This document shows positions 6,001 through 9,000 of a stretch of 9,557 bases of DNA, one piece after another. The position numbers are program-made. Source of the stretch: a virus. Taxonomy: Duplodnaviria > Heunggongvirae > Uroviricota > Caudoviricetes. The DNA lies in IMG/VR virus record IMGVR_UViG_2537561715_000005. The stretch is one strand, 5' to 3'. How positions within the stretch are numbered: the stretch's first letter is position 1; every line of letters starts with the position of its first letter.

Positions 6001-9000
6001 TGCCGCGCTCTTCATAGGTCAGCTCATCGTAAAACCACCGCCCCAGCCAGTCGGGAAAGTGGATATAGTTCGGCCCTGGTGTGTCACGCCACAGGGCATT
6101 ATTTACACGATCCTTAAACGCATCCGTCTGAACCAGCCACAGCGCGACATCGCCACTGGCTCTGGCACGGCGGGCACTTCTGCCGGTATTATCCGGGAAG
6201 GTTCGGTTAATCAGCCTGTCACGGCGAAGTCCATCCCCCTTGAACAGAAACACCCTGTTGCCCAGTCCGTCACTCCGGCAACGACGCCAGAAACGATAGG
6301 CGTTATCTGTCACCCCGGCTTCCCCTCCCGTATCCACCGCCATGGCCATCAGACGCATGCGCACATCCGGATCAGAAGCCAGCGGCCATGTTTTATGGAA
6401 CACATCCGTCAGCAACAAATCCCAGTCCTCCGGATATGCCGCCGGATCAACCGGCAGACTTTCACCGTTGGGACTGCAGCGCAGTGAATGCCGGATGTTG
6501 TAGCGATCAACAATCCAGCGTTCCCCCTGCTCTCCGTATCCGGTGATCTGCACAACAAAACGGCGATTTTTACCGCCCTGTACGTCAACCGTTGCCTCAA
6601 TAAAACGCACACCATCCGGCACAGATCGCCGGGGAAACGGCTCGGCACGCTGTTCAAGCAGTTCACTTTTACGCTGTTCCGTGGCTGAACGGGGCAGATA
6701 GGGTCGTCCGATATCGGTGTTCACCACCGCTTTCAGGGTCTCTTCACTGCCGGTTCGCTCATACTCTTCTTCTGCCGCCAGCAGTTTAAAAATCAGTTGT
6801 TCCCAGGTCTGAAACGCCGCAGCTGGCCCCTCCATCCAAAATGACGCAATCCGGGAGTTTCGTGGCGTTCCGGTGATACTGCCGTCCGCCGCCGCCCGTT
6901 CACCTTCACGAAGCCAGATCCCCTGGTTATTCAGTTCGCGTTTCTGCTCAGGGGCAATCAGCCCGCGACAATGCGGACACATCAGACGGGCAGCCTGACC
7001 GGCAGCCACAAAATCCGGGTTATTCCGGTATCCGGTCATGTTATCCATCACCGGCTGAAAATATTCCCCGCAGTGCGGACACGGCCAGTACCACCGGCGG
7101 CGGTCTCCCCGGTTATACAGTGACAGGATCCCCGTTGTTGGCGGTGCCTCATGTGCGCCACCACAACGCCATTTGGTATCGGTGATATCCCGCCCCGGTG
7201 AACTCTCGACCAGGGTCATCCCCGAGGACATAAAGGTGGTGGTACGCTTTGAGGCCAGCGTGAAGGCATCCCCTTCCCCGTCCACATTTTCAGGGAAACG
7301 GTCATAATCCGTCAGCGCCACACGACGGTAATCCGAAGAGGAAAAGACGGTGATCGACGGCCAGCCAATCTTCAGGAAGGAGCCGTCAAGAAACATTTTA
7401 TCGTGGACGTTGTTGTCATTACGGGAAGGACTGAGGCGCTTGCTGACCTCCGGACTGTGGCGAAACGTCCTGGAAAGACGCGTTCTGGAATGCTCACGCG
7501 CCTTCGTCTCAGTCATCTGCACCACCAGCATATCCGCCGGATCACAGATGATGCCGTACACAATCCAGCCATCAATCAGCCCTTCGGTTTTCCCGGTTCG
7601 CGCAGGTCCCACAAACACCACCGCGTCATATTCACGGGCTGATAATGTATTAATGGGGTCAATCATATAGGGCGTCAGCGATGACTCCCACGGACCGGAA
7701 GTATTGGCTCCCCGTGGAACCCGCATATAACGCCTGATGGCTTCCGCTACTGGTAACCGGCTGGGTGGGCGAAACAGCGAGGCCACTTCGCGCCAGATAT
7801 CGGATGCGCGGCTATGGCTCTCGTTCACCTGATTCACATATCGGCCTCATCACAACAGTCAATGACTGCCTTTTCCAGTGTGTCGCGGATCTCATCAACC
7901 ACAATCTGTACTTCATTCAGTTGTGATGCAGTCCACCCCCTGTCCCTCTCCAGCCGGTCAGGCCAGGTTTCCAGTACCTGAACTATCGCTTTCACCACGA
8001 CAGAAAAGGACCGCCTGACATCACTGACTGGCACAAGCTGAACAGTTTCATGCTGAAATTTAAGACGCTCGCGCTCGGACTGATACCATGCCTTACGAGC
8101 GTGAGGATCCATATCCTCATCTTCGGAAGATGGTGGTTTTTCCAGCAACGAAGTTATCAAATCCGTCAGGAGATACAGTTTTTTCTTTTCATTACTGCCT
8201 GGTGCAAGAGGAACATCCGCCATTCTGGCGGCAACAGTCTGCCGGTGCAGACCTGAAAGGGCTGCCAGTTGATTAATATTTAACTTCATATTTTTCAGCT
8301 CGCCGTCCATTTACATCCCTCCACATAAACCGCAGAACAGAAGTGACTCTGTTTTTTTGTAAAGAAATGCCGCCATATAAAGATGTCGAACAAAAAACAA
8401 CCACAATCATCATCTTTTTAATACTAACAGCATTAAAAACAACAAGTTACCATCATGATGATGATGACGATAAAATCACAAAAATGCGCCTTTTTCCGCG
8501 CCCGCCCGCCCCGTGTTCAGGCCCACCCCACCAGGAGGACCCGCAAAAATGATAATGGTTATCATTTGCAACAAAATCCAGTTTCTTCCACCATCGCACC
8601 GGACTGGCGACTATGAGGGGACAACACCGCGCTCCGTTAACGCGGTAAACCCCGGTGTGTATCGTTTTTGATTATCCCCGCACACTCGCGCAGAGGATTC
8701 TCCCGGTCGGGCTGCGGTCTCTGTTAATGCAGGAATACGGCGACAATACCGCGCATGAATAATAAGGTCGCTCAACACACTGGCTGTAATGCAGCGGATA
8801 CCATGCGGCATTTAGCGGCATTCATCGTACACTCAACGGTTAGCTCTTCATTCGTGGCATTCACCTGAAAGGTCCTGGAGTGTAATTGCGTACATTTACC
8901 ACTGAACGAACCTTCAACAAGAACACGACCACGCTGCAAAATACGGAACGGAATTGTTCCCTGAAAAGGCTTTACGGTTACCAATAATTTCTTCATGCAT

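Follow-up and report, generated by a model that had tools for sequence, protein, structure and literature searches.

The palindrome and its cos region

The window analysed here is a stretch of 9,557 nucleotides from the Caudoviricetes virus record IMGVR_UViG_2537561715_000005, and the element under study is a perfect 21-bp palindrome at positions 8547–8567, a homologue of the Fur box that stands at the edge of a lambda-type cos region. The window is 99.9% identical to VT1-Sakai, the Stx1 phage of Escherichia coli O157:H7, and several Stx2a phages are 97–99% identical to it. Its minus strand follows the gene order of lambda, with Rz, a 710-bp intergenic region, the small terminase, the large terminase, and the portal and head genes. 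The lysis genes upstream of the cos intergenic region end with the Rz spanin gene (9020–9487, minus strand; VT1-Sakai annotation and the open reading frame (ORF) list). Beyond that region lie the gene for a small terminase subunit of 158 aa (7834–8310, minus strand), assigned to the DUF1441 family (Pfam PF07278, E 3.8e-48) and with a homologue in phage Stx2_95 annotated as terminase small subunit, and the gene for a lambda gpA-like large terminase subunit (5714–7837, minus strand), named after the annotation of H0024 in the 99.9% identical VT1-Sakai. The annotation of VT1-Sakai leaves the interval from Rz to the small terminase without a gene, and the small ORFs found there in the window have no Pfam match.

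On the plus strand, 8547–8567 reads AAATGATAA-TGG-TTATCATTT, an exact 9-3-9 inverted repeat; the element is strand-neutral, with AAATGATAACCATTATCATTT on the minus strand, and is homologous to lambda 48450–48470. Its core, at 8550–8564 and likewise strand-neutral, is a 7-1-7 Fur motif, TGATAAC-C-ATTATCA on the minus strand. This core has one mismatch to TGATAATNATTATCA and is the sole place in the window that matches that sequence at ≤2 mismatches; 0.01 such matches are expected by chance per window, and any match arose in 2 of 200 shuffles. As required of a Fur operator, the core contains the 7-1-7 motif TGATAATnATTATCA (one mismatch), while the classical 19-bp Fur box, GATAATGATAATCATTATC, is matched at 16 of 19 positions by minus strand 8569–8551, a score equalled in none of 200 shuffles. 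The first-pass annotation of this DNA had described the exact palindrome and the 14-of-15 agreement of its core with the Fur consensus, and both descriptions hold. Perfect inverted repeats with 9-bp arms and a loop of 0–8 are present in 24% of Markov-simulated windows, so a bare dyad is not rare; the significance of the palindrome therefore comes from the match to the Fur consensus together with conservation, and not from the dyad alone.

Around the palindrome extends a longer conserved block (8543–8571, minus strand) made up of a TTGCAA flank, the box, a T-run, and GC, which reads as a hexamer array, GCAAAT-GATAAC-C-ATTATC-ATTTTT. The T-run serves as a spacer of variable length to cosQ, with 4 to 6 T among close relatives. 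Along the minus strand the box is followed by TTTTTGC, GGGTCCT (8536–8542), a 21-bp spacer, and ACG-GGGCGG..., which is the cosQ-then-cosN arrangement of lambda. The Fur site thus lies 7 bp upstream of the cosQ-like heptamer, which is invariant in alignment A1 and is identical to the annotated cosQ of phage 434 and to lambda 48473–48479.

The cosN-like segment, ACACG-GGGCGGGCGGGCG-CGGAAAAAGGCGC (8486–8516, minus strand; alignment A1), is found again in 96 viral contigs. Its own nick positions can be proposed only by comparison with the lambda sequence ACG/GGGCGGCGACCT/CGCGGG, where slashes mark the nicks, and would put the Fur site roughly 35–50 bp ahead of the cosN nicks. A G/C run within it (8499–8511, minus strand), GGGCGGGCGGGCGCGG, exceeds the commonest form, GGGCGGGCGGCGCGG, by one base, and the window form occurs in 13 of the 96 relatives; this is a length variation inside the presumed cohesive end. 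Between cosN and the start of the small terminase gene, 8311–8485 (minus strand) is presumed from its position to be a cosB-like leader. It contains ATCATCATC/GATGATGAT inverted repeats at 8406–8414 and 8457–8465 (also as 8407–8428 / 8446–8467), which are candidate binding repeats for the small terminase. The only Rfam match, at 8435–8576 (minus strand), was to the PrrF small RNA, below threshold (20.5 bits against a gathering score of 90 bits, E 0.72), and was taken as chance.

Recurrence of the box before cosQ

Lambda has a homologous box, TGATAATCATTATCA, a perfect 7-1-7 palindrome at 48453–48467 that lies 5 bp before cosQ (GGGTCCT, 48473–48479); its right end reads ...GTAGATGATAATCATTATCACTTTAC-GGGTCCT-TTCCGGTGATCCGACAGGTTACG, then GGGCGGCGACCT. 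In alignment A1 the lambda segment AGATGATAATCATTATCACTTTACGGGTCCT corresponds to AAATGATAACCATTATCATTTTTGCGGGTCCT in the window, and the two 21-mers differ at three positions. The same box is found 4–5 bp before cosQ in lambda, 434, phi80, N15, and the E. coli K-12 cryptic prophages DLP12 and Qin, the Qin box being identical to that of lambda. These observations bear on the first-pass annotation, which had taken the palindrome for a replacement of a GC-rich lambda segment, and hence for an acquired site, and had called for an alignment with lambda and other cos regions as confirmation. The alignment finds the box in those very regions, so the idea of a replacement fails and the Fur reading is unaffected. 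As to the flanks, which had been described as conserved, the downstream part (the T-run and GGGTCC) is indeed common to both phages, while the upstream flank that had been quoted is unrelated to that of lambda.

The box of the K-12 prophages coincides with Fur sites that are already in the literature. A site named for nohA was selected in vivo by Vassinova and Kozyrev on a Sau3A fragment (Chen et al. 2007, PMC2189734), and was gel-shifted with 150 nM Fur; it scores 22.3 bits at the old coordinate 1634624, with the nohA gene at 1634391–1633822 (PMC2189734). In NC_000913.3 nohA starts at 1636367, an offset of 1976 bp that places the published site at 1636600, and this is the centre base of the Qin palindrome as counted from the sequence. 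For nohB (now nohD, in DLP12), a site of 25.3 bits was given at 579824 (PMC2189734), which would correspond to the DLP12 box centred at 580601 under a regional coordinate shift of roughly 777 bp. The published binding at the homologous Qin/nohA site supports the earlier suggestion of a Fur-type protein-binding site just outside cosQ. Regulation of the homologous K-12 loci nohA and nohB by Fur or iron is also reported in secondary sources (PMC3688515, PMC9062578): a chromatin immunoprecipitation sequencing peak with its summit at 1634625, upstream of nohA, is listed among Fur-repressed operons (PMC3688515), and nohB is named as a Fur-regulated gene in the introduction of PMC9062578. The noh sites are treated as gene promoters in PMC2189734, which has no mention of cos, lambda, prophage, or packaging.

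We scanned IMG/VR with GGGTCCT-N18-23-ACGGGGCGG, a pattern blind to the box, and obtained 133 matches representing 104 distinct cos sites. Among the 103 sites having 100 bp upstream, 50 contained the 7-1-7 motif at ≤2 mismatches, whereas random 100-bp segments drawn from these contigs did so in about 1.3% of cases. Of the 59 sites with ≤4 mismatches, 57 had the box 3–8 bp (mostly 5–7 bp) ahead of cosQ, which is the fixed position relative to cosQ and cosN that a cos subsite would have. With Fur-class defined as ≤3 mismatches, 54 of the 104 distinct cos sites belong to this class and have the box at 3–8 bp from cosQ, compared with about 1% for background segments, which, along with lambda, 434, phi80, N15, DLP12, and Qin, contradicts a recent acquisition. 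A large-terminase gene follows 39 of the 45 Fur-class sites that could be assessed, and the small terminases beside Fur-class sites are of the lambda Nu1 type (31) or the DUF1441 type (17). The sequence logo of 51 distinct cos-linked boxes, TG(C/T)A(A/G)A-TGATAAT-(C/T)-ATTATCA-TTT, has 1.1–2.0 bits per core position, the 7-1-7 core being the most conserved block. Information content jumps at −13 from the box centre, and directly beyond that point it is about 0.1 bit.

Upstream of the box the sequences have little in common, and clustering of the flanks there divides the 54 Fur-class sites into 27 unrelated groups. In Stx phages whose terminase is of another type, the lysis-side DNA agrees with that of the window until about 12 bp before the box and no further, which indicates that the box is part of the cos/terminase module. 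In the lambda-like cos module the box is an ancestral element. Of 5426 complete E. coli genomes, 881 contain matches to a 127-bp segment around the site; the median is two places per genome and O157-type strains have up to eight, although not all of these matches span the whole segment. The cosQ..cosN pattern was also searched on genome contigs for host taxonomy, where it was swamped by chance matches in GC-rich genomes.

Several cos sites showed other arrangements. At the position of the Fur box, a terminator-shaped GC hairpin with a T-run can abut cosQ instead (for example, L076 2955–2991 and L048 10865–10901, as well as L088 and L092). Seven of nine assessable loci of this terminator type have no downstream large terminase, and some encode a short Nu1-like or helix-turn-helix protein; this type looks like the cos of phage satellites resembling phage-inducible chromosomal islands. 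Paired cosQ..cosN matches in opposite orientation, 0.5–0.9 kb apart, occur in several viral contigs (L007, L020, L025, L084, L058, and L067), at 317–353(+) and 1093–1128(−) in L007 and at 4162–4197(+) and 4722–4757(−) in L020; of the two copies, one follows a terminator hairpin and the other an unrelated sequence. In phage ASU11 (L003, about 3335–3400) the box and cosQ are kept and divergence begins directly after GGGTGGGCCT. No cosN-like GGGCGG run precedes its small terminase, which could be due to a deletion, a different cos, or an assembly issue. Gifsy-1 (L252, NC_010392 about 29700–29760) lacks the Fur box and has another AT-rich dyad, AATTGTTATATTGTAACAATAAC, about 17 bp before cosQ, which may resemble a Zur box.

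Readings of the element

We consider it likely that the palindrome is a Fur operator which this VT1-Sakai-like (E. coli O157-type) prophage has inherited, and that it delimits the lambda-type cos/terminase module on the upstream side. By analogy with the Qin site, Fur should bind the variant present in the window. One or two Fe2+-Fur dimers would recognise both TGATAA(T/C) half-sites along with the AA/TT flanks, such that in an iron-sufficient cell the host repressor would occupy the entry to cos and the terminase genes. Fur could then occlude the TATCAT hexamers and silence, in an iron-dependent manner, transcription that starts at or passes the AT-rich element toward cos and the small-terminase gene. 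Judging from the noh loci, the most likely outcome would be damped transcription into the cos and terminase genes at sufficient iron.

One lineage, that of lambda, 434, and DLP12, has a promoter-like GTGACA-16-TATCAT that overlaps the box and points toward the small-terminase gene, an arrangement that fits the reports of nohA and nohB regulation by Fur, and −10-like TATCAT hexamers occur on both strands of the box. A conserved promoter embedded in the box and directed toward the small-terminase gene was nevertheless rejected as a general feature, the −35 element being confined to one lineage; because −35 matches across lineages equal those of shuffled controls, such a promoter is not the general cause of the retention of the box. 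Control of an upstream divergent gene (DUF3950 ylcI/ynfO, about 150 bp away in K-12 and phage 434) was also rejected as a conserved role, owing to the 27 differing clusters of upstream flank and to the lack, at that place in the window, of any annotated or Pfam-supported gene.

A number of observations weigh against an inherited, working Fur operator. Compared with the tested Qin/lambda site, the window variant has substitutions at 3 of 21 positions, including a T to C change at the inner end of one half-site, and the immunoprecipitation peak upstream of nohA came from an FNR antibody, not a Fur antibody (PMC3688515). No sigma-70-like pair was found at the box in the window, where no −35 lies at usable spacing, in line with the first-pass annotation, which had seen no convincing pair around the site; the promoter overlap expected of a Fur operator is therefore missing in the window. 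A −35 element at 16–18 bp is found only in the lambda/434/DLP12 lineage, the matches of other lineages being at the level of shuffled flanks. The close relative Stx2_95 has a G to A change in its left half-site (L001, about 3335–3355, AAATAATAACCATTATCATTT), so the box is not invariant among near-identical phages. Finally, the box is absent from satellite-like cos sites and from 23 cos sites that have a large-terminase gene after them, from which it follows that the box is accessory, or dispensable for some phages; a required signal would be expected at every functional cos of the family, and this one does not occur at all of them. Of 96 copies of the window's own cos type, 58 contain the box, and in the other 38 a terminator takes its place. 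The suggestion that every lambda-like cos has some palindrome before cosQ was rejected as well, given that the box-less sites have the inverted-repeat content of background.

Whether the dyad acts as a protein site or as nucleic acid can be judged from its substitutions. An intrinsic terminator, or another hairpin or cruciform in RNA or DNA formed by the AT stem and TTTTT on the packaging strand, might be suspected from the T-run that follows the dyad, and satellite-like cos sites have a true GC hairpin with a T-run at exactly this position. The stem of the palindrome, however, contains a single G-C pair and falls short of a rho-independent terminator, the 56-nt segment at the dyad folds as RNA at −11.5 kcal/mol (z = −0.88, with 35 of 200 shuffles equally good), a terminator scan did not call it, and in the lambda version the loop would be 1 nt. 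Across 40 distinct 19-mers we counted 89 one-sided changes that break complementarity and two compensatory ones, which runs counter to a hairpin. The half-sites are similarly conserved and the logo of the 51 boxes is symmetric, as the sequence conservation of a Fur operator should be, and one viral contig (L077) has the core in reverse complement. The 89 to 2 ratio, the equal halves, the reverse-complement core, and the weak hairpin point to recognition by a symmetric dimeric protein and not to a hairpin or cruciform, a reading that was rejected on its weak fold, the absent terminator call, and these changes, and that we hold to be very improbable.

Two further explanations accept protein binding and differ on its use. 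With host Fur or a phage protein bound to it, the box might be functionally part of cos as an accessory subsite for packaging, for example as a protein obstacle that slows the translocating terminase before cosQ and so makes termination nicking at cosN efficient, or by coupling the maturation of virion DNA to iron status. Such a role would suit a box that is always on the side from which the motor arrives, 3–8 bp before cosQ, that is inherited with cos and not with upstream genes, and whose retention is explained by no conserved promoter; the connection between cosQ and Fur also appears unexamined, with no open-access paper found that mentions both. Against it, accessible papers from the Feiss laboratory treat cosQ as a 7-bp site and name no requirements for termination beyond cosQ, cosN, and I2 (PMC4669245), 23 large-terminase-linked cos sites have no dyad at all before cosQ, and a terminator replaces the box in satellite-like cos sites. 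The spacer to cosQ moreover varies from 3 to 8 bp, and by 1–2 T among close relatives, which argues against a stereospecific complex. We regard this explanation as unlikely, and no better a chance is given to the box being a neutral relic that binds Fur, has no selected function in this phage, and hitch-hikes with cosQ. The dispensability of the box in many cos sites, the half-site mutation in a close relative, and the window's lack of a promoter partner would all be expected of a relic, but 15–19 bp are held at 1.1–2 bits over 27 unrelated flanks and two terminase families, next to positions at about 0.1 bit. The version proposed in the first-pass annotation, a recently acquired regulatory site in place of a GC-rich lambda segment, is virtually untenable, being refuted by alignment A1 and by the box at the same place in lambda, 434, phi80, N15, DLP12, and Qin.

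The inherited Fur operator that we favour is the orthologue of a Fur site known for decades and is not a discovery by itself. What appears to have gone unremarked is that the E. coli "nohA/nohB promoter" Fur site is physically the flank of cosQ and is present in lambda. In the searchable open-access literature we found no paper that treats cosQ and Fur together, and the Fur-regulon and cos literatures were apparently never connected there. This raises the question of whether host Fur or iron affects terminase expression or packaging termination in a well-studied phage system. That the box is a working accessory of the lambda-type cos, with iron-loaded host Fur ahead of cosQ affecting packaging termination or transcription into the cos and terminase genes, is doubtful; if true, phage DNA maturation would be tuned to the iron status of the host. 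With up to eight matching places per genome, O157-type strains have multiple candidate prophage-borne Fur sites, which may matter for the interpretation of Fur immunoprecipitation data.

Comparison with known systems

The closest counterparts of the window site are the nohA and nohB sites, which are located just before cosQ–cosN, about 230 bp upstream of the start of the Nu1 homologue. They share with the window the core TGATAAT-N-ATTATCA and the stretch from the T-run to GGGTCCT. Relative to the noh boxes, the window has C for T at the inner end of a half-site, A for G at −9, and T for C at +9, which results in a longer perfect dyad. In addition, the small terminase downstream belongs to DUF1441 in the window and to the lambda Nu1 family at the noh loci, and the window has no GTGACA −35 element upstream.

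The right end of lambda has a homologous palindrome and the same order of box, cosQ, cosN, cosB, and small-terminase gene. The dyad is 7-1-7 in lambda and 9-3-9 in the window, and the cosQ–cosN spacer and the cohesive-end sequence also differ; the box is unannotated in the lambda record. The phi80 record applies the label "cosQ; aka R4 region" to all 55 bp that precede the sticky end, and hence also to the box, whereas cosQ proper is the 7-bp GGGTCCT (434 annotation; PMC4669245) that the Fur box adjoins. Unlike cosQ, the Fur box is missing from many functional-looking cos sites.

Classical chromosomal Fur boxes (19-bp consensus GATAATGATAATCATTATC; 7-1-7 model) have sequence and symmetry in common with the window site, and the hexamer-array extension of the latter agrees with the clustered or overlapping Fur sites of PMC2189734. 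In contrast to the Fur boxes of iron-uptake genes, the window site overlaps no recognisable promoter of an iron-related gene, and the only constant neighbour of a box of its type is a DNA-packaging site.

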